A stretch of 64,000 bases of DNA, from positions 177 through 64,176 of the forward strand of contig CAXBVF010000001.1 of the NCBI GenBank assembly GCA_963979005.1, written 5' to 3'. The notes under the pieces are model-generated. The model was given only the letters and a program-made list of their open reading frames with translations. It was not told the DNA's origin and ran no database searches. Of this stretch, positions 1 through 64,000 are shown piece after piece. The DNA is from an uncultured Candidatus Altimarinota bacterium. GTDB lineage: Bacteria; Patescibacteriota; Gracilibacteria; BD1-5; UBA6164. A program made the translations under genes and the position numbers. Every line of letters begins with the position of its first letter. Positions within the stretch are counted from its first letter, which is position 1.

Positions 1-756
1 TTAGTAGAAGAATATCCAGAAAGTGATACTTATAAATGATTACAAGAAAGTATAGAAAACTATGAAGCTGACTTAGCTATAGATGCTGTAGAGGCTGAAA
101 ATGAAACAATTTTTAAAAAAAGTGATGAATTAGTATCTGAGAATAAAGTTAAACAAAAATTAGAAGAAGATTTTCAAAAAACTGTAGAAGAATTAGATGT
201 TGCAACAACAACTCATGCGGAAGCACTGGAAGAATTATTAAAAGACCCTAGTAATTTGGAATTACAATCTGATGTAAAACAAGCTAAATTAGACCTTATT
301 AATGCTCAAGCAGAAAAAAATATAGCTGAAGCAGAAAAAAATTGAGAAGCTAATTATTCAGAGGAATATGATAAAAACGAAATTGAAATAGCTAAAGAGC
401 AAGCAGATGAAGCTAGAGATAATGTTTGTAAAGAATCATGAAACTGTATTGATAAAGCATCTTTTATAATTAATGTAAATGATGTATCTCCATGAATGGA
501 AGTTACTCCTGGGAATAATACAAAACAAAATGTGAATAAGGCTCTTTGAACTATTATTCAGAGTTTAATGGTTGCTCTTTGAAGTTTGGCTTTGTTGATA
601 ATGACTGTTGGTGCTGGTTATATGATTATGCATAGTGGGCGTGATGAGCTTCTTAGTAAGTGAAAAGCTATATTTATGTCATGAGTATATGCCTTGTTAG
701 TAGCTCTTAGTTCTTATTATTTAATAGCAATTATTAGATATATATTATATAAATAA
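1..756 (+). CDS. 3' part of a large coiled-coil protein ending in a TrbC/VirB2-like two-helix pilin module (5' end outside the window)
   Basis: Frame 1 is open from base 1 to TAA 754-756 with TGA=Gly (8 in-frame TGA). The N-terminal part is Glu/Lys/Ala-rich. The C-terminus NKALGTIIQSLMVALGSLALLIMTVGAGYMIMHSGRDELLSKGKAIFMSGVYALLVALSSYYLIAIIRYILYK is two hydrophobic helices split by a charged loop, the same layout as the three downstream genes. Confidence 0.6.
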
Positions 757-767
757 AATAGTAAGAT

Positions 768-1154
768 ATGTTAAAAAGAATTTGAATTATATGTATTTTA
801 TTATTATCATACATATTTGCATTTAATGCTTGAGTATTTGCTGCAGCACCTGAGGTGAATTGTATTTGATTACCTGGTTGTGTAGATTCAGATATTGCAA
901 ATCCAACTCCCGCAAATATAAATAATAATTTATGAATAAAGGTAATAGCTAATTTAATAGGGCAAGTTATTCAGTTTGTAGCATTATTTGCTGTAATAGC
1001 ATTAATAATTAGTGGTATTATGTATTTAGTTTCATGAGGTGATGAAGAAAAAGCTAAAAAAGCTAAAACATGGATCACATGGTCATTGCTTTGAGTAATT
1101 ATTTCTGTATCAGCTTGGGGAATAATAAATATGTTAAATAAAATAACAATATAA
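768..1154 (+). CDS. TrbC/VirB2-like (type IV secretion-type) pilin, paralog 1
   Basis: 128 aa with TGA=Gly. It has a signal peptide (MLKRIGIICILLLSYIFAFNAGVFA), then two transmembrane helices separated by the loop SGGDEEKAKKAK. This is the typical small CPR pilin architecture. Confidence 0.65.
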
Positions 1155-1174
1155 TATTTTTTAATAATAATAAA

Positions 1175-1561
1175 ATGTTTAAAAAAGTTTTGTTACTTTT
1201 GATAATAATGTTTTGAATAATATCTTTTAACGAGATATTTGCTTCTAATGCTGCTGATGATTGAATAAGAAGTGCATTATTAGATATTACTGATTCTGAT
1301 GTTACTACAAAAGTTAAAGATGATGATTGATTTTGAATGCTTGCATGAATTATCAATTGGGTAAAAGAATCTTTAACATGAGTATTAGTATTAATAGCAA
1401 TATGAGCATTCTTATTTATTTGAGTAAGGTTAGCTTTTGCTAGATGAAATCCTGAGGAATTTAAAAAATGAATGATGCATTTAGTTTATGCTGTTATTTG
1501 AATTTTTATCGTAAGTATAGCCTGGGCTGCTGTTAAGTTAATTTCTGGAATAGATCTTTAA
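1175..1561 (+). CDS. TrbC/VirB2-like pilin, paralog 2
   Basis: 128 aa with a signal peptide and two hydrophobic helices around the loop ARGNPEEFKKG. Same length and layout as the 768-1154 gene. Confidence 0.6.
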
Positions 1562-1572
1562 TAATTTAGAAT

Positions 1573-1980
1573 ATGAAAAAAGTATTAATTGTATTATTAT
1601 CGTTATTTGCGATATTTAGTTTTATGACACCAATTACATTTTGAGAATGTAATCCTGATTTAGATACAGATTGGACAATTTGAGAAGCTTTAGATGGTTG
1701 TTTAAATGATTCAAAATTAGTAGATTGATGAAATGTAAAAGTAGCTTGATGATTTTGAAACGTAATTAAAACATGGGTAAATAATATTTCAATTTATTTA
1801 TGAGTATTTGCTGTTTGATCAATAGTACTTTGAGCATTGATGATGACATTAAGTGGATGAGAAGAGGAAAAAATTAATAAGGCAAAAGATATAATTAAAT
1901 GGTGAATTATTTGATTCTTATGATTAATATTTGCTTCTGCAATTATAAATTTAGTAATTAGAATAATGTATTCTTTATAG
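1573..1980 (+). CDS. TrbC/VirB2-like pilin, paralog 3
   Basis: 135 aa with a signal peptide and two helices around the loop SGGEEEKINKAK. It is third in the tandem array, separated by 11-20 nt spacers. Confidence 0.6.
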
Positions 1981-2003
1981 ATTAATAGTACTTAATTAAT
2001 TTT

Positions 2004-2855
2004 ATGAAACAAATTAACTTATTTTTGATTTCTCTAGTTTTTTTTAGTTTTCTAATATTTTTTTTAGGAAACTATCTTTTTTGATTGAGTCAAAATGAAT
2101 TAAATGAGCATATAGAAGAAAAATATATTGAACCAAGTATAATAATAGATGAGGAATATTTAATAGATGATAATGATTTATCAGAGGAACAAAAGGATAA
2201 AATAAGGATAGCTTTAAAATCTGCTTATAGAATTAATTTTTATTATTTTCCAGAAAATTTTGCTAGTGATGTGTTAAGTTATGTAAATACATTGAAGATT
2301 TTTTTAAATAGTAAATACATAAGTAATAAAATAGATAACTTAAGTGTGGAATTGTATAGAGATAGAGAATCAGTTAGATGAAAAATGAAAGATTGAAAAC
2401 TTCAATTATTTTGAGTAAAAGAAATGTGATTATCCGAATATAGTGCCGTATCTATTCATGAATTTGCTCATTTTGTAGATCTATATTTTTTAGAAAAAAA
2501 AGTATTTACGGATACAAGTTATTATTTTTATAATATTTCATGGGAATCTATAAAGGTATTAAAGCCTGGTTTAGAGCAAAAAGATTTTGTTTCAGGTTAT
2601 GCTATGACTAATAAATATGAGGACTTTGCTGAGTCATTTACATATTATATACTTCATAATGATGATTTCTTAGAAAAATCAAAACAATCTGCACTATTAA
2701 GAGCTAAATATGATTTTTTTTCAAAGTATTTATTTAGAGATGAATGATTTATAAAAAGTGATTTTTCTGTTGATAATGAACTATTAACATATTACCGGGA
2801 TATTACTAAAATAGACTTTTCTTTGGAAAACTTTTTGGAGTTTTTAAAAAAGTAG
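2004..2855 (+). CDS. Membrane-anchored putative zinc metallopeptidase (HExxH)
   Basis: 283 aa with TGA=Gly. It has an N-terminal transmembrane segment, the motif SIHEFAHFVD (HEFAH), and a downstream EDFAESF that could supply the third ligand Glu. Confidence 0.55.
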
Positions 2856-3129
2856 GTATAATATATGTACCAGTAAGAGATAACTTTTTAATTCAAGCTC
2901 AATAACGAGGGGAAAATAAAAGAATTAAAAAAAGTGTTTTTTATAAAAATATAATCAATTCAAACATTATTTATTAAATAGATATTAAGCTAATTTCACT
3001 ATTAGTTAGTTCTATATTACTGTTTATTTTCAAAAAAATAGTATAATAAATGTGCTTCCTTTCTCTAAACATGAAGAAAAAGAAAGATTTTTGATTGTAT
3101 AATTTTAATTTTTAAATCATAAAAATTTA

Positions 3130-5079
3130 ATGAAAGATTTTTTAGATGAACTAGACAAAGAACTAGGGACTGATGTAAATAATTTACAAGCTCCAAAAGA
3201 GGATAAAAGAAAAGAGAATGTAGTTGAAAAAAGAAAAATAACAGTTGTAAAAAAACAAGATATCAAAAAACCAACCAAAGATAACTCTCAAAAAAGACAA
3301 TGATATAATAAAAATTCTCATAATAATGAGGTGAGAGGAAAATTTGCTTCAAAATTTCCAGAAACTAAGTTTTATTTACCATCATTAAGAGAAAAATATA
3401 CTAGGTTTATGCCTGTTGGTTGAAATAACGAAACTGGTTCAAAAAATATGTGAATGATACAATACTGAGATGATATAGTATTGATTGATTGTTGAATACA
3501 ATTTGCAGATAGTAAGTTACCATGAGTAAGTTATTTAGTACCAGATGTATCATTTTTAACAAAATACAAAGATAAGATTAAATGATTAGTATTAACTCAC
3601 TGACATTTAGACCATATAGGTACATTAAAACATGTATTACCGGCACTTGGTATGCCAACTCTATACTGAACTAAATTAACTCTATGATTAGCAAAAAAAT
3701 GACTAGAAGAAGCTTGATTAATAGCTGATACTAGATTTGTAGAAGTAGATGCTGGAAGTGATAAAAAAATAGATATTTGACCTTTTAAATTCGAATTTTT
3801 TAGAGTAAATCACTCAATTCCAGATTGTGCATGATTATATATAGAATCTCCAGGTGGAGCTAAATTTATGCATACTTGAGATTTTAAAATTGATCATACT
3901 CCTGCTATTGATGAACCTGCAGATTTAGATAGGATAGAAAATATGTGAAAAAGAGGTATTACTCTACTTTTCTCTGATTCTACATGAGCTCCTAGAAAAG
4001 GATTTTCTAAATCAGAAAAAGATGTGTGAGAAGCTCTTGATGATATAGTAAAAAATCATACAAAAGGTAGACTTATAATTGCTGCATTTTCTTCATGGAT
4101 TTCTAGAGTACAACAACTTGTTGATAGTTGTGAAAAATATGATAAAACAATATTTTTGAGCGGTAGAAGTATGATAGAGAATGTTAACATAGCAAAAGAA
4201 CTATGATACCTAAAAATAAAACAAGGAGTTGTTAAAAAAATGACTCCAAAAAATACTCAATGAGTATTACCACACAAACAAGTTATTATTACTACATGAA
4301 GTCAATGAGAACAGTTTTCTGCATTAGTTAGAATGGCTGAAGGGAAACATAATTCTGTTGAAATTGTACATGGGGATACTGTTATTTTTTCTTCAAGTGT
4401 TGTTCCATGAAATGAAAGATCAGTTGTTTGAATTATAAACAAACTTATAAAACTTTGAGCAAATGTACTTACTAAAGATGATGGAGAATTCCATACTTGA
4501 GGACATGCTTTTCAAGAAGAACAAAAAATAATGCTTCAATTATCAAATCCTAAATATTTTATGCCTGTATATGGTGATTTATATTTTAGAACAATACATA
4601 AAAATACAGCTGTATCTACATGATTTAAATCTGATAATGTACTACTTTTAGATAACTGAAATATAGTCGACTTTGCACCAAATGGTACTGTATTTAAGTC
4701 AAAAATTAAGGCTCCTATTCAAGAAATAGTTGTTGATGGACGTGGTATGTGAATTTTAAATTCTCATGTAATGCAAGCAAGAGAAAAAATGATGGATTCA
4801 TGAGTTTTGGTTGTTTCATATAGAGTAGATAAAAAAACAAAAGCTATCATGTGACATATTAGACTTGAAACTAGAGGTTTGGTGTATTTAGACGAAGTTA
4901 GATTTATTCATAGAATGATTATTAAAAAAGCCCGTGATGTCTATGAAAATACAGTAAAAGATGTTCCAGATATGGAAGAAAAAGACTTATTAAAAATTGT
5001 AAGAACAGATTTAGAAAAATTCTTACTTCATAAATTAGATAGGGAACCAATGATTATACCAATGCTTACAGAAGTATAG
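3130..5079 (+). CDS. rnj: Ribonuclease J
   Basis: 649 aa with TGA=Gly. It contains the metallo-beta-lactamase motif LTHGHLDHIG, then a beta-CASP region and a C-terminal domain (FHTGGHAFQEE, MPVYGD). The frame matches the track fragment 4879-5079. Confidence 0.9.
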
Positions 5080-5230: not shown

Positions 5231-6325
5231 ATGATTAGACAATTTGCAATAGCGGTAACTCTTCTTGGCTTACTTGTAGGCTGTGGAACAGATACTGAGT
5301 TTGTTGAGAAATCTCCAGAAAGCACTAGCTTCAAAATTAAAGCTATGGCTAATAATGACTTAACTTTTACTGGAGGGGCATTAGAATTTACAACAGAACA
5401 AGGGGTTCGCCATTTCGATGCTGATACTTACCTAAGGCCGCTGACGGAAACTGAAGTGGAGGAGGGAGTTGTAAATGTATATACCCCATATGGCTACGAT
5501 TATGTAGTACTATGGGTATATGGATATGTTAATGATGGGTCATCATGGGGTGGAAGTTATACATTTTCGACTCCTCAGAAAATTCTTTATAATGAAGGTT
5601 CTGAGAATATCATAAATGTATATCCTACATATATTGATACATATGAAACATTAGCAGTAACAGATTCATATCCTGATGGTTGTACCGTCTGGACGCATGA
5701 AGATACCTTGATCAGAGGCAAAGAAAATAATGTGAAGTATTTTGCCGTATGTAATGAAGATAAAAGTGAAACTTTGAAGCGTGGTCTGAATACAGTCAAT
5801 TTGCCTGGCACTCCGTCAGAAGATGGAGAAGTCGCTTTTGATGATGTGTCGGATGAATGTGATGAGGTTGAGCTTTTACTGGGTTGGTGTTCAGATTATG
5901 TCTTTTCCGATATAAATCTATATGATGTAAATGGTCGGAAGATAGAAAAATTATCTAAAACATTTTCTTTGTTAGATAAAGGCTCGCTGATTATTGAAGA
6001 TGATTTTTTATTTTCAGATGCTGAGAGAGTTAATCTCTTGACGCTGTGTATTAATACACCTGACGAAGAAATTGATTCTATCAAGTTTCAAAGCTTAGCC
6101 GTTCCGACTGATTATGATACTGATGTGTATAGGACTGTTAATACTTTTTATGATGATTTATCTGGAAATACTTGCCCTTATCTTGATAGTGGGATATTTA
6201 TTCCAAAAAATAATCAATTAATGGTTTCGTATAGTGTAGTAGGTTCTTCAGCATTTAATAATGTTGAGGCTACAATCGTTGAGGGATTTGGTAATACTAG
6301 CGGTTTTACAATCGTTGCTGAATAA
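5231..6325 (+). CDS. Lipoprotein of unknown function, free of TGA codons and compositionally atypical
   Basis: The 364-aa ORF is intact even under the standard code. The lipobox LLVGC follows a signal peptide. All 27 Gly are GGN. In-frame GCG, CGC, CCG, CTG, ACG and TCG codons are rare in neighbouring genes. A strong SD and a consensus promoter lie upstream. Confidence 0.75.
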   Translation: MIRQFAIAVTLLGLLVGCGTDTEFVEKSPESTSFKIKAMANNDLTFTGGALEFTTEQGVRHFDADTYLRPLTETEVEEGVVNVYTPYGYDYVVLWVYGYVNDGSSWGGSYTFSTPQKILYNEGSENIINVYPTYIDTYETLAVTDSYPDGCTVWTHEDTLIRGKENNVKYFAVCNEDKSETLKRGLNTVNLPGTPSEDGEVAFDDVSDECDEVELLLGWCSDYVFSDINLYDVNGRKIEKLSKTFSLLDKGSLIIEDDFLFSDAERVNLLTLCINTPDEEIDSIKFQSLAVPTDYDTDVYRTVNTFYDDLSGNTCPYLDSGIFIPKNNQLMVSYSVVGSSAFNNVEATIVEGFGNTSGFTIVAE

Positions 6326-8066: not shown

Positions 8067-11000
8067 ATGCAAAAATTTAATATGTCTAAATGAGTTAAAT
8101 TGTTAATAACCACATTATTAATAGTAGTTTGAGTTAATAATGTTAATGCGACTTACATACAAAATCCTGATGGAATTTGATGAAATGAACTAAGATTATG
8201 GTTAGAATCTACTTCGTGAGTTACTGGTAATACAGATTGAGCTAAAATTAGTCTTTGGACTGATAAGTCATGAAATGGTTTTGATGTATCTCAAGACCAA
8301 TTTATTAGTCAACCTACATATAGTGATAATACTACTTCAAATATAAATTTTTTACCAGTTGTTTCTTTTCCTACTAGTATTTTTACATACCTAGATTTTC
8401 ATACAGGTTTTGATGTAAATTGGAACAATGATTATACATTAACTGCTGTTCTTAGAAATAATACATTTTCATGATGAACATTTGTTGAAACAATAACTTA
8501 TGATGAGGCATTAAACTTAACTAAAACTTATTATAATTGAGTTAATCAATCATATGACCCAACAGCAACTTGATCAATAAACATTGGTGATTTTACGTCA
8601 TCATGAACTTTTGCTGTATGATGATATGGTTATGAATTTGACCTAGCTGAAGTACTTGTGTATAATAAGGAATTACCAATAGAGGATATTCAAGTATTAG
8701 AATCATATTTAGCACTTAAATATTGAGTTGCTTTTGAATGAAATGAATCTCTATCTCATGATTATTATGATTCAAATAAAAATATAATTTGAGTTCTACA
8801 TAGTAATACGGGTTTATGAACTACATCTAATTATTATTCATATTGATATTATGATACTAATTGAACTTATAGATACTCTACTCGCTATTTTTCTTTTAAT
8901 ACTACATGAATTGTTAGAGATGACGCTTTATGATTAAATGTAACAAAATCAAAAAATCAAAACTATGGTTACTGACTTGTAACAATAGAGAAAACTAATG
9001 CTTTAAATAATATGGAGCATTTACTTATATCTGATACTTGGTCATCAGTGGATTGGGATTTATTTGACGCACCTGTTTGATATAGTCTAGTCTCTAGAAG
9101 ATGGTCTACTCAATGAACAAGTGATAACATAAAGCTTACTTTTGATGTGGATAATTTAGCTTTAAATATTCCAGCTCCAGTTGATGGTTCTAGTAATTAT
9201 TATTTTATATATGATGCAGATTTAGATTGATTACTAGCTGATGAGTCACCACTTCCAATGTCTAATGACTGATGAGGAAATTATAGTATATCATGATTAA
9301 GTTTATCAGATAGACAAGATTTTACTATTGCTAGTTTATGAGAGTATAATTTTGCACCTAGAGTTATAAAAATAGATGATAGTAAATATTCTGATAGAAT
9401 AGAACTTAATACTCTTACATGATCTGTTATTTGAAATTTATCTGTAGTAGATGAAAATTCTTTGGATACACATACTTATGCTTTGGTGGCTTGAACGGGT
9501 TCTGAAGATAATGCCTTTTTCTCTATTAGTTGAAATAGCTTAAGTGTAAATTTTTCTGCAGATTATGCTAATCCATTGGATGCTAACCTAAATAATGTAT
9601 ATAATATATTAGTTGAAGTTACTGATAATTGAGGTTTAACTTATCAAGATACTTTCTATATATATGTAAATCAAGGATATGCTCCTACTGACCTAACTAT
9701 TGATGGTTTTGATGCTTTACATATAGATGAAAATAATTCATTATATTCTAATATTTGAACTCTTATTGCTACAGACCCTGATACTTCAGATACTCATTAT
9801 TTCAACTTAGTAACTTGAACATGAGATGAAGATAATAATTTATTTTATGTAGATTATTGACCATGGTTAGAAACACAATTTGTAGCTGACTATGAAGTTC
9901 CTCAAGATGCTAACGGTGATAATACTTATAATATACGTGTTGAAACAACTGATGCAGAATGAAATAAATTTTCAAAAGCACTTACTATTGTTGTAGATAA
10001 TGTTAACGAAACTAATGTTGCCCCTACAAATATATTAATTAATGGTTGAAGTTCTCCAACTATTGATGAGAATGAAGTAAATTGATTTGTATTTTGAAAC
10101 TTATCAACTACAGATGCAAATACCTGAGATACACATAGTTATACATTAACATGATGAATAGGTTCTGATGATAATTGAGCAGTTACAATTTCTTGAACAT
10201 CAGTATCACTAAATACTAGTCATGATTATGAAAATCCTGCAGATGCTGGTGCTGATAATATGTATGCTTTTAGAGTAAGTACTACAGATGCATTATGATT
10301 GACTTTTGAAAAAGCTTTTATTCTTAGTGTAAATGATGTTGCTGAGAGTAGTTCTCCTTATAATTTACAATTAAATTGATGAATTAGTGTTACAATTGAT
10401 GAAAATACTCCATCTTGAACTAATATTTGAGCATTTACGAGTGATGATTTAAATGTTTGAGATGTACATACTTATTCTATAGTTGCTTGAACGTGAGATG
10501 AAGATAATGGATTATTCATTTTATCTTGAAATAATCTTCAACTTGCTTTTACTCCTGATTTTGAAATTGAGGCTGATGCCAATGTTGATAATACTTATAA
10601 TATTAGAGTTAGAGCAACTGATAGTGATTCACTAACTACAGAAGCGGCATTTACTGTTGTTATTAATGATGTTAATGAGGCTATTAATAATGCTCCAACT
10701 GATATAAAAATCAATAATTTAGATACAATAAGTATTGATGAGAATATAACTAGTTGAACTAATATTTGAACTGTTTCAGTAATTGATCCTGATATTTGAA
10801 ACACACATACTTATACTTTAGTTAATTGAATTTGAGATGAAGATAATTCTAATTTTACTTTAGTAGCTACTACTCTTTCTTTAGCAATAACTCCTGATTT
10901 TGAAAATCCTGTAGATGCTAATAATAATAATGTTCATAGAATTAGACTTAGAGTTACTGATAATTTTTGATTAAGTTTTGAAAAAACTTTCAATATAACT

Positions 11001-12482
11001 GTTAATGATATATTTGAAAATACTGCTCCAAGTGATTTAAAAATAGCTGGTTTAGATGCAATAGATATAGCTGAAAATACTTCTACATGAGCTAATGTAT
11101 GAGCACTTTCGAATACTGATATAGATAATTCAGATACTCATACTTATTCCTTAGCAGTTTGAGCTTGAGATACTGATAATGGTCTTTTTAGAACTCATCT
11201 TGGTTCATTATTTATGGATTTTAAACCAGATTTTGAAAATCCAGTTGATACAGGTACAAACAACCAATATAATATTAGATTAAAAGTTACTGATAATAGT
11301 TGAGCAATTTTTGAAAAAGCATTTATTATATCTATTACTGATGTTTTTGAAAATACAGTGCCTACAGATACTAAAATAAATTCATTAAATGCAATTTCTG
11401 TAAATGAAAACATTACTTCATGATCTAATATATGAACATTATCAGTAGTTGATGGTGATATTTGAGACACATATACTTATTCATTATTAGCTTGAACTTG
11501 AGATGAAGATAATACACGTTTTACTATATCTTGAAATAGTCTTAGACTTGCATTTACACCAAACTTTGAATCTCCTATAGATTCTAATGCTAATAATATA
11601 TATAATATAAGAATTAGAGTTACTGATAGTGGATGACTTACATTTGATAAAGCATTTACAGTTACTGTATTAGATGTAAATGAAACAGTTGTTACTAGTA
11701 GTTGAGGTGGATGATCATCATGATGAGGTGGATGAGGTTGAGCAAAAGTATGTAGACAAGTTGAATTAGTTTGTAGAACAGCTCGTGCTACTTCTACTAG
11801 ATATAGAGTATATAGAGTAGAGTGAGCTTCTTGTTTAGCTGATTCTCTTTGAGATACTTGTGATCCTAAAACTTTTTGAACTGCAGATGCAGTTAAAGTT
11901 TCAAAAATAGCATTATATGTTTCTAAAAGTGAAAAAATTAATGAAATTGCAGTTAAGGTTGATGATATGATTAAAAAAGCTAAAAAACAAGCTGACGATG
12001 ATATTATTATTATGAGAAATGATGTAGTAAAAATAATCGAAGAGTATTTAGAAATATTAAAAACTAAAAATAAAGCAAAAATTGCTAGTGCTAAAGAAAA
12101 TCTAATAACAGAATTTAAAAAGTTTTTAGTTGAAGTTAAAAAGAAAAAAATTGTAATTGTAAAAGCTCCTAAACCTGTTGAAAAAACGGAAGACGAAGGA
12201 GTTGTAAAAGAAGAATGAGAGGAAGATGAAAGCTGAAAATATGTATCTCCTAATGATAGAATTAATGGTGTATGAGATAAACTAGATACACTTATTAAAG
12301 CAAAGAAGAAAGCTAATACTTGAACTATATTAGAAATGAGAAACTGACTGATGAAAGATTTAGAAGCTTATATGGTTTTATTACAAAGTAAAATCTCTGC
12401 TAGAACTAAAGCTATTCAGATAAAAATTTCTAAAAGAAATCTTATAAAAAAGATAAGAGCTTTTATGGCAGAAATTAAATAA
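8067..12482 (+). CDS. Giant surface protein: signal peptide, LamG-like lectin domain, 7 cadherin-like repeats, poly-Gly linker, coiled-coil tail
   Basis: 1471 aa with TGA=Gly. The N-terminal LRLWLESTSGVTGNTDGAKISLWTDKSGNGFDVSQ ... AEVLVYNKELPIEDIQVLESYLALKYGV is a typical LamG/ConA-like module. The repeats carry cadherin hallmarks (IDEN..., D.D..DTH.Y.L, VNDVNE..AP). Confidence 0.8.
9354..11687 (+). repeat. Seven tandem in-frame cadherin-like repeats (period 327-339 nt)
   Basis: Repeat units begin near 9354, 9681, 10020, 10353, 10692, 11025 and 11358. Each starts at (A/S)P(T/S)D/N and ends at V.DVNE/F. Confidence 0.8.
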
Positions 12483-12635: not shown

Positions 12636-13667
12636 ATGAAAAAAACAATAAATATCTTGTTAGTAATGCTAATCACTTTTCTTTTGTCGTCATGTGTAAC
12701 TTCGCAAACAGATGTTAATCAAGCTAAACATGAGTTATGAATTATTGAATTAGAAGAAGATACTATCGATTCTTGAACTAATATTGATATGGAAATTGAA
12801 AAAGCTAAAGATGAAATAATTCAAGTCGATGAAATGTGAGAAGAAAAAAAAGAGGAAATTAAAAAATTTGAAATTATATCATTAACTGATGATCAATTTT
12901 TAGAATTTGATGATCTAACTAATGAAAATTTTCTTGATAGTGAGGTTGAAATTAAATGAAAAACTCTAGCTATTGTTGATAAAATAATAGTGACTTTTGT
13001 TAATGAAACGTCTGATTTTCCAGTTGATACTTATACTTTAAAACAATTTAGTTCATGAGACGAATCTTTTTTATATAGAGCTTTCTCTAGATATGAAACG
13101 TTAGATTATGGTAAAAATGTGTATGTATTTGAGGCACATTCATGAGTTAATGTAACTAAATTACAAATTATATTAAATGTAATTAAAGAAGAAGAAAAAG
13201 AAATTTCTGAAAAAGTAGAGGAAATATTTGAAGATGTTTCTTTAGATACGCTACCAGTGTCTTCTACTTTTTGAAATCCTACCTATTTATGAAGTGGGAA
13301 AGTATCGTATTCTGATCTAAAATGATTAGAAATTAAAAGAGATGTAAATTCAGATTTAACTTGTGATAATTTAACAAGTATTTTAGCTGATAAGTTAAAT
13401 GGGTGGTTTTTTTGGAACACATGTCGTCCTATAGAAGCTGATGAGGGTATAAGTTTTTTTGTTATTAGATTAGATGGAGAAGATTATATATACGAAAAAC
13501 ATTATTATCTTTCTTATGAATGAATATATTGAGTACAAGAGTTAGAAACATGAACTTGAGTAACGGCTGATAATATATGAGAAAAAAATAGTGAGTTAAA
13601 GGAATGAAATAAAGATTTTTCTATTTTAAATGTGAGTGATGATTTATTTATACAAATTTTAAAATAA
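12636..13667 (+). CDS. Hypothetical lipoprotein
   Basis: 343 aa with TGA=Gly. The signal peptide ends in the lipobox FLLSSC. I recognise no family. Confidence 0.55.
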
Positions 13668-13683: not shown

Positions 13684-14382
13684 ATGAGAGTATTATTAAA
13701 AGTATCAGGGGAAGCATTATCTGGGGAAGAAGAGAAATGATTAGATTTTGTAATTCTAGATGAAGTATGAGAGCTTATAAAAAATTTAGTTATTCATAAT
13801 ATAGAGGTATGAATAGTTATTTGAGCCTGAAACTTTATTAGATGAGCTGAAATAGAAAAAATAAATATAGATAGATGTAATGCTGATAATATGTGAATGT
13901 TAGCTACAAATATTAATTCTATAGCTTTGTCTGATGTTCTTACTAGAAAGAACCTTGATGTAAAAGTTTTGAACTCTTTTTGAATAGATTGAATTGCTGA
14001 GAGATTTAATAAACCAAAGGCATTAAAAGATTTATCTAAATGAAAAGTTTTAATATTTTCTGGATGAACCTGAAATCCTTATTTCACTACTGATACAGCT
14101 TGAGTTTTAAGAGCCTTAGAAATAAACGCAGATCTAATGATAAAAGCTACAATGGTAGATTGAGTTTATGATAGGGATCCATTAAAATATCATGACGCAG
14201 AATTTATAAAAAATGCTACTTATGATGAAGTTTTAGCTAAAAATTTAAAAGTAATGGATATGACTGCTGTATCAATGGCAAAGGAGAATAATCTTACATT
14301 AAAAGTGGTTAGTCTTTACAAAAGTGAATCAATATTGAGGGCTATTTTATGAAATGATGAATGAAGTACTATTAGTTGATAA
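13684..14382 (+). CDS. pyrH: UMP kinase
   Basis: 232 aa. Contains LLKVSGEAL, VIGAGNFIRG, GGTGNPYFTTDTAGVLRA and VDGVYDRDP, which are diagnostic PyrH motifs once TGA=Gly is applied. Confidence 0.85.
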
Positions 14383-14498: not shown

Positions 14499-14744
14499 AT
14501 GTTAGGAAAATTAAAGAAAAGAAAAAGACTTAGAGTTCATGGTTTCCTTAAAAGAAGTTCATCTGTTTGAGGTAGAAATGTATTAAAAAACAGAAGAAGA
14601 AAAGGTAGACATCAATTAACTGTGTCTTATCCAAAAAGATATCAAGAAATTAATGGTAAACCAAAAATGCATATTATTGCATGAGGAACTGCAAGAAAAT
14701 CACCTTTTGATGGAAAAGGGAATTATATTGTTAGAAAAAAATAA
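14499..14744 (+). CDS. rpmH: Ribosomal protein L34 with a C-terminal extension of about 37 aa
   Basis: [42 protein letters not shown] matches canonical L34. The frame stays open for another 38 codons to TAA 14742-14744. Confidence 0.8.
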
Positions 14745-17174: not shown

Positions 17175-20100
17175 ATGATACATATAGTAGCTCAATATAG
17201 ACAACTTTTTTTAAATTTTGTAGTTAACTCTTTTGAAAATAAACCTTTCAGTGGAATGTCTGTACATGATAAAGTAAATTGATGAGTAACACCTGAGGAT
17301 TTACAAAAATTTCTTGATTGAACTGATAAACCTTCAGAGAAGTCTAAAATTGAATATTCAAGAGGAGATTTTATGAATGAATTAAATGAAGTACTTAAAA
17401 ATAAAGAAATTACACCTAATGATGCTGAAAATCTTTTATATGGTATTTCACGTTTAAAACAAAAAGGTGAAAAAATAAGATATAAAAAATCTAGTGTATT
17501 AATTTTGCGTGAGATGTGAGTTAGTTGATCTAAAGATTGATCATGGATGAGTGAAAAAAGCTTAATTAAAGAATTACAAAGTATTGTAGATTCAAAACTT
17601 ATTTCTAGAGTTACTCCAAAAAATCCTGAGATAAAAAAACTTGATACTAAAAGAATAATAGAAAAAGCAGAAATTAAAAAAGATACTAAAAAAGAGACAA
17701 AAATTTTGAATGAAGAAGTGATTTCTACAGATGTATTTCGTAGAACATTAAGAAAATGATCAAGACCTGGTCCTGATATTATGGCTCTTCAAAAATTTTT
17801 AAATGTAAAAGTTACATCAAAATTTGATCAAGCAACAGTAGATGCATTAAAAACATATCAAGAAACTATTTACTGAAAATGACATAAATATGTAGATGGA
17901 GTATTATCAAAAAATGGTAAAACATTAAAAACAATAAAAAAATCATTAGATTATAAATGATCAGCTACAAATGTTTACACTAGAGAAGCTAGTTCAGTTC
18001 AAGTCAAAGAATCTGTAAACAAATCTATGTCTAGAATGGATGCTTTACAAAAATTAAATAAGAATAGTGATCAATTTTACAAAGCTTTAGAAGCTTATCA
18101 TGATGGTTGATTTAGGGATAATATTGTATCAGATATGTGATCATTATTATGACATTTTAGAGAAGCTGTTTGATCTAATGAAGCTAGTGAATATTTTAAA
18201 AAAATGAAATGAATTAAAGAAGAAATTTCACAAAATGATGATAAATTTAATAACGAGTTAAATGAATTGTTAAAATTATGATTAAAAAATAATAAATTAG
18301 CGGATGGAACTGAATATACAGCTAGACAAAAAACTACAGCTAAATATATTGCTAGAGATGTAGTTATTTGAGCTGTTCTTTGAGATGTACCTTTATTTGA
18401 TTTAAGATTAAATTTTGCAAAGAATCTAATCTCTCATGGTGTCCCTATGGATAAAGCCTTAGTTTTTAAAAATTGGGTAAAATGATGAATGGTTGATACA
18501 CCTGATTATAGTCAAGAAAATTTAGATAATGTTTCTTGAAAAGATGCATTAGTTAGCCTTTGAAAGTTGAGATCAACTTTAACAGCATATGGCTTTAGTG
18601 CTAAAGAGATAGACTTTACATTAAATGGAGATTTGGAAAAATTAACAAATAAACAAAAAGAAACATTACAAACTATTATAAAAAATAGAATCATTCCTGA
18701 CTTAGAAACTCTAAATATTGGATGATTTAACTTTATAGAAAGATGGTTTGATAATAAAGATAATCAAATAGAAAATAAATTAAAAAAATTAACTTGAAAA
18801 AAACATTTATTAGATATAAAGGCTACAAGAAAATTTAGTAATGCTAATGTAGAAAAATATGATGTAACATTAGAAAAAGTAGGTAAATTTTATATTTTAG
18901 AAGTGGATGATCATTGATCAAATACTAATAAAATATTTGATTCTATGCCTAGTGAAAGTGATATTACAAATTCAATTAATGAATATAATAAATGAGATAA
19001 AAAATCATACGCAGATTGATGGAATGAACCAAAATCTATTAGCACTTCTACAGATTTCTTAGATGACGAAAAAGAAATGAGAAATTTTGGAGTATTTAAA
19101 ATATGAAATACATGAGCTCATATAATAAGAAGTTGAGAAAAATATAAGTATTTTACTCAAAAACCTAGTCAACAAGATATAGATAATGCAAATGATAATT
19201 TTGATAATGAATCTGATAATTGATTTGCAAATAATCTAGATCTAGCTTTAAACTCAGATTTATCTTTATCTGATATATTTGATGATATTTGATCAATTGT
19301 TAGCTTATTAGATGAACAACATAAAGAAGGATGATTTTTTGGAACTGAAGAATGACTTGAAAAAGGATTAAAAGATGTTAAATGAAAAATTGATTATTCT
19401 CAATGAATTCATGGTGAATATAAATTTGCAAAAAGAGCTATGAGTATACTTGAAAAAAAGAATACTACATTGTTTAAAAGATTTTCTATGTTATCAGTTT
19501 TTGAATCATCTGATGAATTTTTAAAAGCTTTTCCAACAAATGATGAAGTTAGGACTTCAATATTAATGCTGAACTCAGCAAATAATGACCATGAATATAT
19601 AGATATACTACAAAATATAAATACAAATCCAAAAGTTAGAGAATATTTCGATATTGTATTAAATGCTAATAAAAATAATGCTTGAATGAAAGCATGGAAA
19701 GAATATAGAGTAAGTAATATTCCAAAATTTTCTGGATTAACTCGTATAAATGAAAGTTCTAAAAGAAAATTTAAGTATGGTCCTAAATTGGATATATCAA
19801 ATGACTTAGGTTATAGTGTCAAAGAAATGAGAAAAGATATTTTAAGTCATTTAAAAGGAGAAACTACTTATCCAGAAAAGAGTAGTAAAGCAATGGATGT
19901 TTTATGAAATATCCTAGCTTGAATTATTGATAAACAGTGATTTACTGATATTACTTATGAAGATTTAGAAAATTCTATTGCTAATAATATGATTCCAGTT
20001 AATATTGAAACCTTTAGATGAAATTCTGCTATAAATACAGCTAAAACTATATGAAATTCAAATCATGATAATTCAAAATGAATTGATTATTTAATGGATA

Positions 20101-36041: not shown

Positions 36042-36050
36042 TAAACTGTT

Positions 36051-36949: not shown

Positions 36950-37039
36950 AAAATAAATCCATTTTAATTGGAAATTTTCGCGGAGTAAGCTCAACAATTG
37001 CTGAAAAAATCCGTATTTATTATTAATTGTTACAAAAAC

Positions 37040-37474
<435 letters not shown>

Positions 37475-37509
37475 TAGAAAAAATATTTAATTATTAATTT
37501 TTAAAAAAG

Positions 37510-39400: not shown

Positions 39401-41953
<2,553 letters not shown>

Positions 41954-46798: not shown

Positions 46799-48619
<1,821 letters not shown>

Positions 48620-50764: not shown

Positions 50765-51373
50765 TTATAATTCTTTTCTTTCTCTTAGAGCGTTAACTAT
50801 TGTTATGTTATCTGCATATTCTATATAACCAGATGAAAGTCATCTAGATAATTTTGTGACTTTTGTTTTGTATTTTAGACCTCTTTTTTCTATTTCCTCA
50901 GTTATATAACTACTTGTGGCTTCTCATTCAATATTTGGATTTGTTGCTAGAATTAGTTCTAGTTTATCATCTGAATTTTCTATTTTTTTAAATAATGATT
51001 CAAAATGTAAATCTCATATAAAAACTCAATTAATGGGGGATATTGCTCATCCGAGTATATGGTAAACTCATTTATATCATCTAGATTCTTCTAGTGTTAT
51101 CATATCTAGATATTCTTCAACTATGGCTATAGTTCATTTATCTCTTGATTCTGATGAACAAATATTGCATGTATCTCTTGATATATCTGTAAGTGAATGA
51201 CATGTATTACAAAAATGGACCTTATCTTTTATATTAAGTAAATTATCACTTAAATTGTCTATAAAGTTTTTATTCGAGTTTAATAGGAAAAAAGCTAATT
51301 TTGTAGCTGATTTTTCTCCTACTCAGGGAAGATAACTTATTGAATTAATTAGTTCTTTTAATGCTTCAGGCAA
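50765..51373 (-). CDS. recR: Recombination protein RecR
   Basis: 202 aa with a TTG start (an in-frame TAA lies two codons upstream of the TTG). Contains the helix-hairpin-helix LPGVGEKSATKLAFFLL, the zinc finger CNTC...CNIC, and the Toprim segment IAIVEE...YHILGGAISP...LILATNPNIEGEATS. Confidence 0.85.
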
Positions 51374-51566: not shown

Positions 51567-53147
51567 ATGAAAATACAAAAAATAAAATCTAATAACTCTT
51601 TAGCTTTCACATTAGTAGAACTGATAGTAGTAATAACTATTTTAGCTATTTTGGGTACAATTGCATTCATAAGTTTACAATGATATAGTAGTGATGCTAG
51701 GGATAGCGCTAGGATATCTGATGTAAATAACATGAAAACAAGTTTAGAATTATTCCATCTTAATTCTTGAAGATATCCTTTCCCAGATAATTCAGAGAAT
51801 GTAACTTATAGTTGATGAACAGTAATTGTATGGAAACAATGAACACTTTGAGACACAGTTACAAGCCAATTATCAAAAAATCTAAATAAAAAACCATTAG
51901 ATCCTTTATATGAAAAGGAATATATATATTCTGTAGTTGAGAATGCTAATGAATATCAAATATTGTCTGTATTTGAGTCAGACTTACAGGCAAATAATTT
52001 GTTATTAAATAATGTAAATGCATTAGATAATTCAAATGTAAGATTGGATGGTATATATAATTGATTATATATAAAGACTACGAACTATATAATACCGTCG
52101 CCAAGTATAGTAACATCACTTAATCCAGCTTGATTGGATTTTAGTATAGCAACTATTGGGTCACAAGTAACAGATGGGGGGACAAATATTCCAAATATAT
52201 GAACAACTAAAGTCGTTCAGTCAACATGAGCATTAGTATTTAATGCTTTTGAAGTCTATGAATGAGTTTTAGATAAGAATTCAGATATAGGTTCATATGT
52301 ATCAGCATATAATGTATTATTAAATACATATAGTTGATCAAGTATAATAAGCGATTGAGTAGTAAATGAATTATTAGTACAATCTAATGATGAAGAGAAG
52401 ATAAATTTTGTAAATAGAGCAATATTAAAAAATAATAATAGTGTGGTAATATCTGATTGGAGAGATATTGATTCAAACTGTGATAAACCTGATGTAGTAA
52501 TTTGAACACAAACTTGGGCATGATGTAATTCTACAATATGAAATTGATTAGAATATGGTAAAAATGATAATTGAACAGATGGAATAATAGATACTTGTTA
52601 TAAGGCTTATGATGCGGTTACTAGTATCACTGCTGATTGTGTTATAGATAGTGTTGATATGGCTAGTAATACAAAGGCAAATACATGGTTTACTTGATCT
52701 AATATTGATTGAGATATAGAATTTGGTAGTATATGGTGAAAAAATTATACATGAGGAAATGCTGCAAGTGCTTGTATTTTTTGATATCATCTACCTACAG
52801 ATGCTGAACTTGAATATGCTGAAGAATATTTGATAGTAGCTGACTGATGAGCTCCAGATTGTAGAGTATCTGATAACTGGAATTGTGATTGAACTGGTTG
52901 GAAACTACATTCTACTACAAATAGTACAAATAATATGGTAGAAAAATTAAAATTACCTTTATCTGGTTTTCGTGATACTGATAGTACTTCATATAAACAT
53001 CGTGGTTTTCGTATTGCATTATGGTCTTCTACTACTGATATTAATGATGATCAAACAGGTAGATTATTTGGTTCAAGTACAGAGGGAATATGGCGTTCAT
53101 TTTGGCCTAAAACTTATGCATTTAATGTTCGTTGTATAGAAGATTAG
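51567..53147 (+). CDS. Type IV pilin-like protein fused to a C-terminal FISUMP (Fibrobacter major paralogous) domain
   Basis: 526 aa. The prepilin N-terminus is SLAFTLVELIVVITILAILGTIAF. The C-terminus LPLSGFRDTDSTSYKHRGFRIALWSSTT...AFNVRCIED fits the FISUMP pattern. Confidence 0.75.
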
Positions 53148-53588: not shown

Positions 53589-54530
53589 TTAGATTATTTT
53601 TTCAGCACATCTAGCTTTAGCGCTTCTACTTCTAGGGTTATCTTTTATTTCTTTATCAGTTGGTATTATTGGTTTTTTTGTTATTAATTTTATACATTTT
53701 GTATGTCCACAACTACATATCATATCTCTACATATACAGTCTTTTGTTTCTAGTTTGAATAGTTGTTTTACTATTCTGTCTTCTAGGGAGTGGAAACTTA
53801 TTACAAATATTTTTCCATTTTTATCTAGTAATTGTATAGCATCTTTTAAACTTGTTTCTAAATTCTCCAGTTCCTTGTTTACTTCTATTCTAATTGCTTG
53901 AAATATTCTAGACTTAGTTTTTGGTCATCATGGAATTATTTCACTTAAATCAGTTGTAGTTTTAAACTTTTCTTTTTTTCTTCTTTCTACTATTCTGGCA
54001 GATATTTTATTTGATCCTGGTTCTTCTCAATATTTTAAAAATATATTTCTAAGTTCTTGAGCAGTGTATCAATTTACTATATCAGCAGCAGTTTTTCATT
54101 TAGTTTTGTCTAACCTCATATCAAGAGGTCATTCTAACATAAAACTAAATCATCTATCAGCTTCATCTAAATGAAGGGAAGATAGTCATAAATCATAGTA
54201 GATTCATGTAATTTTTCATATTTTCTGTTTTTCTAATTCTTCTTTTAGGTTTAAAAAGTTGGAATTAATTAATATTACTTCTACTTTTTTATCCTTGTTT
54301 ACTTTGTCTAATCTAATTTTTGCTAATTCTAAGTTTTTAATATCAGCATCAAATCAGATAAGAGTATCTCATGCATTCATTTTTTCTATAATCTTGCTAG
54401 CATGTCATCACATTCATAGGGTAGTGTCTACAATTATGTTTTTTCTATCACTATTTATATTAATTGAATCAACTAATTCATCTAAAAGTACAGAAATATG
54501 TCTACTTTCAATGCTTTTTGTATCAGTCAT
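53589..54530 (-). CDS. rsmH: 16S rRNA (cytosine1402-N4)-methyltransferase
   Basis: 313 aa. Contains HISVLLDE, DTTLGMGGHASKI (three TGA-Gly), DLGLSSLHLDEADRGFSF, GPLDMRLD, and ISFHSLEDRIVK. Confidence 0.85.
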
Positions 54531-54824: not shown

Positions 54825-55565
54825 ATGATAAAAATAGAAAATTTAAAAGTATGAGTCTGAAAAAAGGAAATTCTTAAGTGAATTAGTCTTGAATTTGAAC
54901 TTGGAAAAAATTATTGTTTACTCTGAAAAAATTGAAGCGGTAAGTCAACTCTTTCATCTTTTTTAATGTGACATCCTAAATATGAATATAATAGCTGAAA
55001 AGTAAGTATAGAAGATAATGATTTGCTTGAAATGAACCCAGAAGAGAGAAGTGCCGCTTGATTATTTTTATCATTTCAAAATGTTCCTGAAATCAAATGA
55101 ATAAGATTAAGCGAATATTTGAGAACTATTTATAATATTCATTTAAAAAGTTCTAATCCTGATATAAAGGAATTATCACCATTTATATTTAAAAGGTTCA
55201 TAAACAAATATTTGGAAGAGCTTCACATTGATGAAAAATTTATGGAAAGGGAACTTAATGTTTGATTTTCTGGTTGAGAAAAGAGAAAAATTGAGATTCT
55301 TCAAATGAAGCTTATATGACCAAAATATATTATATTAGACGAAATAGATAGTGGACTTGATTTAGATGCTTTTAGAACAATAGCTGAAATGCTAAAAGAT
55401 CTTAGTAGTAAAGATAATAGTTTAATAATTATTACTCATTATTTCAAAATACTAGAGTATATTAATGTAGACAAAGTGTATGTGATGAAAGATTGAAATA
55501 TTGTAAAAAATGGTAATAAAGAGTTAATTAAAGAAATAAGTGAAAGTGGTTTTACAAATTTATAA
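54825..55565 (+). CDS. sufC: Fe-S cluster assembly ATPase SufC
   Basis: 246 aa. Walker A is LLGKNGSGKST (TGA-Gly at 54924 and 54933), the ABC signature is FSGGEKRK, and Walker B is ILDEIDSGLD. Confidence 0.9.
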
Positions 55566-61684: not shown

Positions 61685-61689
61685 TTTGA

Positions 61690-62388
61690 TTATTTTTCTT
61701 CATCAGTATTCATATCTATTCTAATTGAAGGTCACATTGCATTACAGATAAATACAGAATTTATATATTTACCTTTAGATCATGCAGGTTTTACTTCGTT
61801 AATAGTTTTTAAGAAGTGTTCTAAATTAGCTTCTAATTTTTCAGCTCCGAATGAAAGTTTACCAAAAAATGAATGAACATTACCTTGTTTATCAGTTTTG
61901 AATTCAAATTTTCAAGCAGAAATTTCTTTTATAGCAGATACTAAATCAGGAGTAACTGTTCCAGCTTTAGGGTTAGGCATTAAACCTTTTGGTCCTAAAA
62001 CTCTAGCTATTTTACCTAAATGTCTCATCATAGTAGGAGTAGCAACACAAACATCAAAATCTAATCATTGATTACCTTTATCGATATTATCGATTAATTC
62101 TTCTCAACCAGCTATCATTGCTCCAGCAGCTTTAAGTTCATCAGCATTTCCATCTGTAAAAGCACAAACTTTTGAAACTTTACCTGAACCATTTGGTAGA
62201 GAAATAGTAGTTCTGATTATTTGATCAGCATGTTTTGTATCCAAGTTTAAATTTAAATGAATTTCAACCGTAGGATCAAATTTAACTGTATTAGTTTTTT
62301 CTAATAGTTCTACAGCTTCTTTTACTGAATAAGCCATTTCTGAGTTAAGTAACTCAACAGCTTTATTATATTTTTTACCTCTTGCCAT
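61690..62388 (-). CDS. rplA: Ribosomal protein L1
   Basis: 232 aa. [14 protein letters not shown]...[14 protein letters not shown]...LPNGSGK...[27 protein letters not shown] chose the start at the MARGKK methionine rather than the track's upstream start. Confidence 0.9.
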
Positions 62389-62490
62389 TATATAATTTTT
62401 AAAAAATAAAGGTTTTAACGACATAACTTAGTCATGTCTTCCTTAATAGGTGGGCAGATTATATATAAAAAAAAGAAAAAGTAAAATGTT

Positions 62491-62763
62491 TTATTTTTTA
62501 ACTTTTTCAACTGGGTCATATCATCATTTATTCCATGGCATACATCTACTGATTCTAAGTATTCATTTAAAAGAACCTATAATTGCTCATTTTTTTTCTA
62601 TTGATTCAATCATATATTCGCTACAAGTAGGAATATGTTTACAGTAGGGAGTGTTATTTCTTGATTTTGCCCATAGTGAGTGATCAGGGGATAGAATAAG
62701 CTGATAAGTTTTGACTGTTTTTATTAATATGTTTTGAATAATATTATGCTGCTTCTTGCTCAT
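62491..62763 (-). CDS. yidD: Membrane protein insertion efficiency factor YidD
   Basis: 90 aa. [66 protein letters not shown] fits the YidD pattern. Its start overlaps the 3' end of the upstream ORF by 20 nt. Confidence 0.8.
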
Positions 62764-63064
62764 CTTTAGAATTATTAATATTTTTATTTGATAATATTTT
62801 ATTTAATCTAGAAGCATAAGCAATATTAATTTCTATTAAAAGTAAGCTAACTCCCTCTTGACCTTTTTCAATTAAGTACTTAACAGAGTTTGATACTCAT
62901 AATTGAGGAGTATATGACATAGTTTCTTCTCAAAATAATTTTCAATTATTTACTTTATCAGATTTGATTCATACTATTTTATTATATTCATCTATATAAA
63001 ATTCTGCTTTATAAGTTTCTTGAAGGGCACATCAATGTACAATTCAGTCTTGAGTTTGATTCAT
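62744..63064 (-). CDS. Hypothetical protein (106 aa) between rplT and yidD
   Basis: Open with TGA=Gly. I recognise no family. Confidence 0.45.
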
Positions 63065-63114
63065 TTATTAAAATTTTAAGATATAAAAAAATAAGAACTA
63101 GTAAAAACTAATTC

Positions 63115-63459
63115 TTATTTAACAAAATTTATAACATTTGAGAATACAGTAGGATTTGAGATAGCCAAATTTGATAATACTTTTCTGTTTAATACAACTT
63201 TTTTCTTGTATAGAGCATTAATAAATTTTGAGTAAGTCATTCCATTTTCTCTAGCAGCAATATTGATTCTTACTGTCCAAAGTTTTCTAAATTCTCTCTT
63301 TTTTCTTTTTCTACCAATAAAGGCATTAGTACCAGCTTTCATCCAAGCATTTTTTGCTCTAGAGAAAACTCTTGAATTTAATAATCTATAACCTTTAGTG
63401 GCTTTTAGAATATTTTTATGTCTTTTTCTAGTCATTAGACCTCTTTTAACTCTAACCAT
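63115..63459 (-). CDS. rplT: Ribosomal protein L20
   Basis: MVRVKRGLMTRKRHKNILKATKGYRLLNSRVFSRAKNAWMKAG..., 114 aa. Confidence 0.95.
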   Translation of the reverse strand: MVRVKRGLMTRKRHKNILKATKGYRLLNSRVFSRAKNAWMKAGTNAFIGRKRKKREFRKLWTVRINIAARENGMTYSKFINALYKKKVVLNRKVLSNLAISNPTVFSNVINFVK

Positions 63460-63498
63460 TTTTATATTTAGTTTATAATATTAATATTAACAATTTTC

Positions 63499-63693
63499 CT
63501 ATATATGAGGTAGTTGTTGTTTAATTTTTTTTGTTTCACTAGATGAAACCATTAATCCGTATTTATTTCTAGATTTAGCTTTTGAAGATTTATTACTTAA
63601 TAAATGCTTTTTCCAAGCTTTTGCTAGTTTAAATTTACCTTTTCCAGTAACTTTAACTCTTTTCTTTACTCAACTTCTAGTCTTTAAAGTCAT
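63499..63693 (-). CDS. rpmI: Ribosomal protein L35
   Basis: MTLKTRSGVKKRVKVTGKGKFKLAKAWKKHLLSNKSSKAKSRNK..., 64 aa. Confidence 0.9.
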
Positions 63694-63714
63694 AATTTTT
63701 AATTATTATATAAA

Positions 63715-64000
63715 TTATTTAATTGGTTTTAACATAGCGATAAATGTATTTCAATTTTTTCTAACCTGTCATTCTAGTTTATACATTTCTGATAAACTTT
63801 CGACAAAAGTTTCCATTTTGGTACTTGCTAATTCTGCATAATGATTTTCTCTTCATTTTAACATTAAAGTTACCTTTAATGGGTGATGAGCTTCTCAAAA
63901 CTTCATAGCGTGCTTTCTTCTAATTTCTAAATCATGATCTCAGATTTTGAAAGTAATTCTAATTGTTTTTAAGTCTGGAGCTTTTCATTTTTGCTTTTGC
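63715..64000 (-). CDS. infC: Translation initiation factor IF-3, C-terminal part (5' end outside the window)
   Basis: KTIRITFKIGDHDLEIRRKHAMKFGEAHHPLKVTLMLKGRENHYAELASTKMETFVESL is the IF-3 C-terminal domain. It is followed by rpmI-rplT as in the conserved operon. Confidence 0.85.

Follow-up and report, generated by a model that had tools for sequence, protein, structure and literature searches.

Reading of TGA as glycine in the window

The 64,000-nt window analysed here (contig CAXBVF010000001.1 of assembly GCA_963979005.1, positions 177 to 64,176) belongs to the chromosome of an uncultured marine bacterium of the Gracilibacteria/BD1-5 lineage, GTDB class JAEDAM01, which almost certainly uses translation table 25, in which UGA encodes glycine, UGG encodes tryptophan, and termination is left to UAA and UAG alone. 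A first-pass annotation of the sequence had proposed that TGA is decoded as glycine throughout, and had suggested tabulating the residues that align to TGA as a check. Window proteins were aligned, with TGA masked as X, to Escherichia coli K-12 orthologues (15 regions; 26 proteins aligned). The whole window contains 909 in-frame TGA codons, and in the 261 TGA columns that could be aligned to the E. coli orthologues, glycine is the dominant residue (149 columns, 57%) and tryptophan is found in none. With glycine at 8.2% among the E. coli residues in the alignments, this is a large excess (binomial p = 6e-91). For GGN codons, the control in these alignments, glycine occupies 67.5% of columns. 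TGA columns thus fall on glycine almost as GGN codons do, which supports the glycine reading. The other TGA columns are occupied mostly by alanine (17), asparagine (17), glutamate (13) and serine (12), with fewer of any other residue; these four are common replacements for glycine. When amino acids were compared by log-likelihood, using empirical substitution profiles from the same alignments, glycine exceeded the runner-up, serine, by 211 nats at TGA columns. All remaining codons with sufficient data match their standard amino acids.

Amino acid composition leads to the same assignment. Of about 19,500 codons, 4.7% are UGA, and glycine makes up 7.4% of residues if TGA is read as glycine. If TGA is left out, glycine content drops to 2.8%, which is implausible. 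Tryptophan is still encoded by TGG, as had been stated in the first-pass annotation: TGG falls on E. coli tryptophan in 16 of 34 columns of the same alignments, no E. coli tryptophan column holds TGA, and the gyrA TGG column is tryptophan in 92.5% of the relatives described below.

Translation table 4, the code of Mycoplasmatales and a number of insect endosymbionts, with UGA for tryptophan, would yield identical long open reading frames (ORFs). Public pipelines also appear to use it: a protein recorded from ENA and JGI contigs of the same organism (P0061) contains two TGA codons, both written as W, which implies that table 4 was used for that record. Its predictions are contradicted by the alignments, where none of the 261 TGA columns meets an E. 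coli tryptophan and 149 meet a glycine, and by the tryptophan column of gyrA, which is TGG and never TGA in 80 relatives. Under table 4, tryptophan content would also reach 5.2%, with glycine at just 2.8%. The alignment tabulation refutes table 4, and we regard it as extremely improbable.

The six TGA positions cited in the first-pass annotation (36671, 30027, 30174, 39707, 54924 and 54933) prove to be + strand TGA codons, with the reading frames and glycine motifs given there. The motifs that had been listed for RsmH, PyrH, TrmD and RecR behave in the same way, the RsmH motif (LGMGGH) being read as DTTL-x-M-x-x-H with a TGA at each x. The features concerned are as follows.

36671-36673, + strand: invariant glycine of ribosomal protein S12, PQKR-G-VC (QKR-TGA-VC), in rpsL (36533-36949); all 3 rpsL TGA codons fall on E. 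coli glycine
30027-30029, + strand: first glycine of the G1/P-loop motif of IF-2, IM-TGA-HVDHGKT, in infB (29061-31493)
30174-30176, + strand: glycine of the G3 motif of IF-2, DTP-TGA-HEAF
39707-39709, + strand: GyrA motif VL-TGA-SYHPHGD, in gyrA (39401-41953), which has 29 TGA codons
54924-54935, + strand: Walker A glycines of SufC, LL-TGA-KN-TGA-SGKST, with TGA at 54924 and 54933, in sufC (54825-55565)
53589-54530, - strand: rsmH, with 3 TGA codons in the S-adenosylmethionine-binding motif DTTL-G-M-G-G-H and 15 in total
13684-14382, + strand: pyrH (uridine monophosphate kinase), with 17 TGA against 3 GGN codons; of its 16 aligned TGA codons, 12 meet glycine
24575-25228, + strand: trmD; 8 of 8 TGA codons fall on E. 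coli glycine
50765-51373, - strand: recR, with a TTG start at 51373 and about 202 aa; TGA codons in the LP-G-VG and Toprim glycine motifs

In infB as a whole, 24 of the 45 aligned TGA codons fall on glycine and none on tryptophan, and in sufC 10 of 13 fall on glycine.

Open reading frames, stop codons and translation starts

The G+C content of the window is 26.4%. ORFs of at least 100 aa called under table 11 cover 26% of it, and the longest has 372 aa. When TAA and TAG are the only stops, a greedy non-overlapping set comprises 70 ORFs that cover 91.8% of the sequence, the longest having 1471 aa. About six short ORFs of this set are doubtful (ORFs 27, 48, 51, 53, 56 and 58). The count agrees with the roughly 70 contiguous genes reported in the first-pass annotation.

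1-64000, no strand: genome segment in which UGA is glycine, with 909 in-frame TGA codons and about 70 ORFs

The 70 ORFs end at TAA in 57 cases and at TAG in 13, and that all of them end at one or the other is a consequence of how the ORFs were defined. The use of these stops is instead indicated by the C-termini, which agree with those of the E. coli orthologues to within a few residues. TAG-terminated genes with matching C-termini include infB, rpsD, rpsL, rpsG, rpmA and rpmI. Both TAA and TAG therefore work as stops, in keeping with the earlier statement that genes end at these two codons, and among the window genes compared with E. coli there is no orthologue that requires TGA as a stop.

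Under the standard code, TGA would be a true stop, and the interrupted genes would be decayed or the product of sequencing or assembly errors. This is how the sequence is presented in the public record: the table-11 annotation of metagenome-assembled genomes (MAGs) in GenBank that hold the same sequence gives only fragments of 23-105 aa. The 909 in-frame TGA codons are set against an absence of in-frame TAA or TAG in essential genes, such as those for ribosomal proteins, IF-2, GyrA and RpoA. The TGA codons themselves are found again, at 99.2-99.96% nucleotide identity, in nine independent loci, which speaks against errors and pseudogenes alike, and variation within the species is mostly synonymous under table 25 (107 against 52 sites). 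The recurring TGA codons and intact essential frames refute decay or assembly error, and a standard code in this organism is hardly credible. The standard-code ORF track is an artefact, as had been noted in the first-pass annotation, and the 23-105 aa fragments in the NCBI MAG records are its counterpart.

Genes of the window largely lack Shine-Dalgarno sites. One of the motifs GGAG, GAGG or AGGA occurs at -20 to -4 in 2 of 55 genes, compared with a chance expectation of 3.3, and the upstream regions of these genes are nearly pure A/T. This agrees with the earlier description of the genes as lacking such sites.

Relatives and taxonomic placement

The gyrA gene was used to scan one genome per GTDB species (185,579 species genomes), and the best 80 loci were listed. 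All 80 are of the BD1-5 group and bear the label Gracilibacteria, ‘Peribacteria’ or Patescibacteria; among them are two complete BD1-5 genomes, CP042461.1 and CP017714.1. No locus among the best 80 carries an SR1/Absconditabacteria label. By this similarity ranking, the assignment to Gracilibacteria/BD1-5 made in the first-pass annotation stands. In the alignment made here, the amino acid identity of the best 80 loci to the window is 56-87%. Among the matches listed, the closest are BD1-5 MAGs at 84-87%, and the closed BD1-5 genome CP042461.1 stands at 81%. With a best gyrA match of 87%, the population is a species distinct from the GTDB representatives among the matches listed.

A codon-aware alignment of gyrA from the 80 relatives shows TGA and GGN replacing each other. 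Columns that hold TGA in the window are TGA in 44% and GGN in 40% of cases in the relatives (84% together), and columns that hold GGN in the window are GGN in 58% and TGA in 25%. TGA is absent from the TGG column. The gyrA genes of relatives with higher G+C content contain 0-4 TGA codons.

A tRNA(UCA) that bears glycine identity elements

Just downstream of gyrA, one of the relatives (locus L085) carries a tRNA gene whose anticodon is UCA (12861-12939, - strand); it scores 44 bits against the Rfam tRNA model. As a tRNA(UCA) near gyrA is seen in L085 only among the gyrA loci of the best 80 relatives, this synteny is not conserved. A search pattern derived from the anticodon arm and T-loop of the L085 gene has matches in at least 120 metagenome contigs. 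Of the 80 loci listed (L105-L184), which range in G+C content from 18 to 43%, 77 contain a tRNA(UCA) of 79 nt. These tRNAs occur in 27 sequence variants, all of which have G1:C72, C2:G71, G3:C70, U73 and an encoded CCA. Pairing in a cloverleaf across 25 variants reaches 99.6%, and nine pairs show compensatory changes, although minimum free energy folding of a single tRNA(UCA) did not recover it. The molecule is built with a 7/5 acceptor/T-stem, its variable region is of 4 nt with no long extra arm, the D-loop has 10 nt, and one additional nucleotide stands at the junction of the D and anticodon arms. The anticodon stem is 6 bp long, and its extra, outer pair changes from C:G to U:A by covariation; as most of the stem was set by the search pattern, variation could show at the two outer pairs only.

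The acceptor pairs and U73 shared by all variants correspond to the published rule set for tRNA-Gly(UCA) (PMC8629427). Judged by the bacterial glycyl-tRNA synthetase identity set, tRNA(UCA) is predicted to be a dedicated glycine decoder. The same features are a further point against table 4, as the glycine set includes U73 and not the G73 discriminator of tryptophan acceptors (rules in PMC8629427).

ARAGORN labels the molecule ‘tRNA-SeC’, and its 6-bp anticodon stem is like that of tRNA-Sec, which could suggest that UGA is recoded at special sites only, by selenocysteine insertion or programmed read-through. The 7/5 acceptor/T-stem, the short variable region and the missing extra arm do not fit tRNA-Sec, and a gathering-threshold scan of the whole window with Rfam gave no matches, selenocysteine insertion sequence (SECIS) elements included. 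At 4.7% of codons, UGA is moreover far from confined to special sites, and it aligns to glycine rather than to cysteine or selenocysteine. Codon frequency and alignment together refute selenocysteine, and we consider recoding at special sites next to impossible as an account of these codons.

The tRNA(UCA) could be linked to the window through MAGs. In many Gracilibacteria the tRNA gene is adjoined by a gene for a basic protein of 111 aa (MANSHGLKS...; L225, 6001-6336, + strand, with equivalents in L139, L153 and L171). This highly conserved protein has 492 clusters, of which the 120 listed are 74-97% identical, has no Pfam domain, and is named ‘PilA’ by one source, apparently wrongly. It led to contigs of 26-27% G+C that carry the tRNA, and a table-11 fragment of the adjacent gene (P0131) led from there to NCBI contigs. 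The tRNA(UCA) gene is present on JABHVQ010000109.1 of GCA_018658185.1 (L235, 1715-1793, - strand) and on JABIJX010000093.1 of GCA_018655325.1 (L236, 2647-2725, - strand). Both MAGs also carry the window sequence, on different contigs. Because it is present in two MAGs that hold the window sequence, the organism has, at bin level, the expected tRNA(UCA). The tRNA-Gly with this anticodon that the first-pass annotation had anticipated elsewhere in the genome was in this way found, complete with glycine identity elements.

Nothing contradicts the reading of UGA as glycine, although the evidence for it has limits. No tRNA gene lies in the window or in its flanks, which were taken from sister contigs (about 5 kb on the left and about 10 kb on the right), and the window and flanks contain no release-factor genes. 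The link between tRNA(UCA) and the window is one of MAG binning, in two independent bins and with no shared contig. In the alignments, 43% of TGA columns fall on E. coli residues other than glycine, although the figure for GGN codons, 32%, is of the same order. Finally, strictly unambiguous decoding is beyond the reach of sequence data, as some tryptophan might be inserted at UGA, or some glycine at UGG, through wobble at U34.

A 4-bp anticodon stem in tRNA-Trp(CCA) has recently been shown to relax decoding, with the result that UGA is read. The tRNA(UCA) described here may, conversely, be more than an ordinary tRNA-Gly with an altered anticodon, in that its 6-bp stem could prevent U34 from misreading UGG, though we think this unlikely. 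If it were true, the longer stem would allow glycine at UGA to coexist with tryptophan at UGG, and the avoidance of TGA in ribosomal-protein genes (below) would be the cost of such a decoder. We found no description of the 6-bp architecture in the literature; it may be known already, as Campbell et al. (2013) was not covered.

Codon usage and an outlier gene

TGA is the majority glycine codon of the window, with 909 TGA against 540 GGN codons (62.7%). Its share differs between classes of genes. In 13 ribosomal-protein genes (in the intervals 14499-14744, 32684-37782 and 61690-63693), TGA makes up 22% of glycine codons, against 68% elsewhere (Fisher p = 3e-24), and in the trigger factor gene its share is 19%. 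The low share in ribosomal-protein genes suggests translational selection against the reassigned codon. One of these intervals holds the following cluster.

32684-37782, + strand: ribosomal-protein and rpoA cluster (rpsM, rpsK, rpsD, rpoA, rplQ, rplM, rpsI, rpsL, rpsG, rpmA), in which TGA is the minority glycine codon

These patterns could be explained as follows. A strong mutational bias towards A+T, as the composition implies, would turn GGA into TGA, a change that is synonymous under table 25. Most glycine codons would thereby become TGA, with the exception of those in highly expressed genes, which keep GGT and GGA. Loss of release factor 2 (RF2), presumed from the literature on the clade, would leave nothing to compete for UGA, with release factor 1 (RF1) handling UAA and UAG. 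Glycine at UGA would then be supplied by tRNA(UCA) with its glycine identity.

Three of the arginine codons are nearly unused: CGA occurs twice, CGG twice and CGC three times in about 19,500 codons, and arginine is encoded by AGA (523), AGG (45) and CGT (27). Near-absence of these codons is what would be expected before or after codon capture, and CGG has been predicted to encode tryptophan in some Gracilibacteria (Shulgina and Eddy, 2021; PMC8629427). Table 25 would be incomplete if CGA or CGG were likewise reassigned here. None of the four CGA and CGG codons in the window stands at an alignable conserved position, and three of them lie in doubtful ORFs or in gene 7, described next. In the gyrA genes of relatives, both codons stand on arginine columns. 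In the alignments to E. coli, the other codons keep their standard amino acids. A reassignment beyond that of UGA is quite improbable.

5231-6325, + strand: gene 7, an outlier orphan encoding a putative lipoprotein of 364 aa (lipobox LVGC), with no TGA among its 27 glycine codons

At the TGA share of the window (63%), the absence of TGA from all 27 glycine codons of gene 7 is improbable (P = 3e-12). The gene also has a G+C content of 35.9%, against 26% for the window, accounts for 6 of the 11 GGC codons in the window and is preceded by a canonical AGGAG Shine-Dalgarno site. It is not chimeric, as many samples (126 index blocks) show it with the same surroundings. A search of 5.8 billion protein clusters returned no homologue other than gene 7 itself, and no Pfam domain was found in it. 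Gene 7 looks like a recent import from a source with the standard code and Shine-Dalgarno sites, or like a gene that has been kept readable under the standard code.

The same species in other assemblies

Two proteins without TGA codons, L20 and the product of orphan gene 7, were used for exact look-ups. The window sequence recurs in other assemblies at nine loci from nine samples or MAGs. These include the NCBI MAGs GCA_018655325.1, GCA_018670105.1 and GCA_018658185.1 (contig JABHVQ010000052.1, 84.8 kb), as well as several ENA assemblies and JGI sample 3300000151 (SI53jan11_200m; Saanich Inlet, 200 m). In the assembly collection as a whole, genes of the species are indexed in between 51 blocks (rplT) and 126 blocks (gene 7). 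Comparison of the window with nine overlapping contigs from other samples gives 159 differing sites, 107 synonymous and 52 nonsynonymous under table 25. Two of these single-nucleotide polymorphisms touch TGA codons, and both are exchanges between TGA and GGA.

The GenBank MAGs of this organism are labelled only ‘bacterium’ and annotated with table 11, and the resulting fragments have entered nr (for example HOF65_04720, 79 aa; P0131). The genes recorded as fragments on NCBI contigs are full length on ENA and JGI contigs. Any part of the window needs to be read with table 25, as ‘short ORFs’, ‘frameshifts’ and ‘pseudogenes’ are otherwise artefacts. Table 11 shatters the genes, and table 4 leaves them whole but puts tryptophan in place of glycine. 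If the case of P0061 is general, about two thirds of the glycines (63% of glycine codons being TGA) would be recorded as tryptophan, to the detriment of homology searches and structure prediction.

Relation to known genetic codes

Table 25 was reportedly recognised in Gracilibacteria/BD1-5 by Wrighton in 2012 and by Rinke in 2013, and in Absconditabacteria (SR1) by Campbell in 2013. The reading of UGA as glycine in this lineage is already known, rare but well documented. Proteomics of BD1-5 found 97 peptides unique to a database with UGA as glycine, against 3 for UGA as tryptophan (Hanke, 2014; PMC4032931). The RF2 gene prfB was undetected in every BD1-5 genome examined, with prfA present (Sieber, 2019; PMC6851277), and Codetta together with tRNA identity rules supports UGA as glycine in the clade (PMC8629427). 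Table 25 has been described as restricted to GTDB class JAEDAM01 (bioRxiv 10.64898/2026.05.24.727570). Conceptually, nothing is changed by our results, which extend a code variant known since 2012-2013 to a further marine population.

The window differs in nothing essential from the BD1-5 system, its population being another species. It shares UGA as glycine, UGG as tryptophan, UAA and UAG as stops and a tRNA-Gly(UCA), together with low G+C content (26% here and 28.9% in the closed BD1-5 genome), giant surface proteins and large GspG-like pseudopilins (about 526 aa here and about 528 aa in the closed genome). The SR1 version of table 25 has the same UGA assignment and the same tRNA identity logic, as well as the RF2 loss that would be expected here from the clade. 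It differs in that CGA and CGG apparently encode tryptophan in SR1 (PMC8629427), whereas they are nearly unused here (2 codons each).

Table 4 systems (Mycoplasmatales, Hodgkinia, Zinderia, Nasuia, Stammera and some Eggerthellaceae) resemble this one in the capture of UGA in a reduced and mostly A+T-rich genome, a tRNA(UCA) and the loss of RF2. In contrast to them, glycine and not tryptophan is inserted here (0 of 261 columns), and the tRNA carries glycine rather than tryptophan identity elements. Selenocysteine systems likewise read UGA with a tRNA of anticodon UCA, but here there are 909 UGA codons in 64 kb, at glycine columns, with no SECIS element and no tRNA-Sec architecture.

Other genes in the window

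The remaining features include pilin-like and surface proteins.

768-1980, + strand: three tandem T4SS_pilin genes of 128-135 aa each, matching PF18895 (VirB2/TrbC type)
2004-2855: Peptidase_Mx1 zinc metallopeptidase, after the pilin genes
3130-5079: RNase J, after the Peptidase_Mx1 gene
8067-12482, + strand: surface protein of 1471 aa with repeated cadherin domains
17175-20444, + strand: surface protein of 1089 aa, no Pfam match
20670-23849, + strand: Cys- and Gly-rich surface protein of 1059 aa, weak DUF4215 match
51567-53147, + strand: protein of 526 aa with a type IV pilin N-methyl N-terminus, resembling the GspG-like pseudopilins of about 528 aa in the closed BD1-5 genome

The first-pass annotation had described tandem small pilins. 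The three tandem genes are present, but they encode VirB2/TrbC-type ‘T4SS_pilin’ proteins (PF18895) and not type IV pilins. Gene 1 (1-756), which lies before them, has a C-terminal membrane segment that resembles these genes. The giant surface proteins and low G+C content, which had been taken to fit BD1-5, do so, with proteins of 1471, 1089 and 1059 aa and a G+C content of 26.4%. Two housekeeping proteins differ in length from their E. coli counterparts: ribosomal protein L34 (14499-14744, + strand) has a C-terminal extension of 36 aa, and a homologue of alanyl-tRNA synthetase (46799-48619, + strand; 606 aa) ends about 180 residues short of the E. coli enzyme, the missing part being the C-terminal domain.

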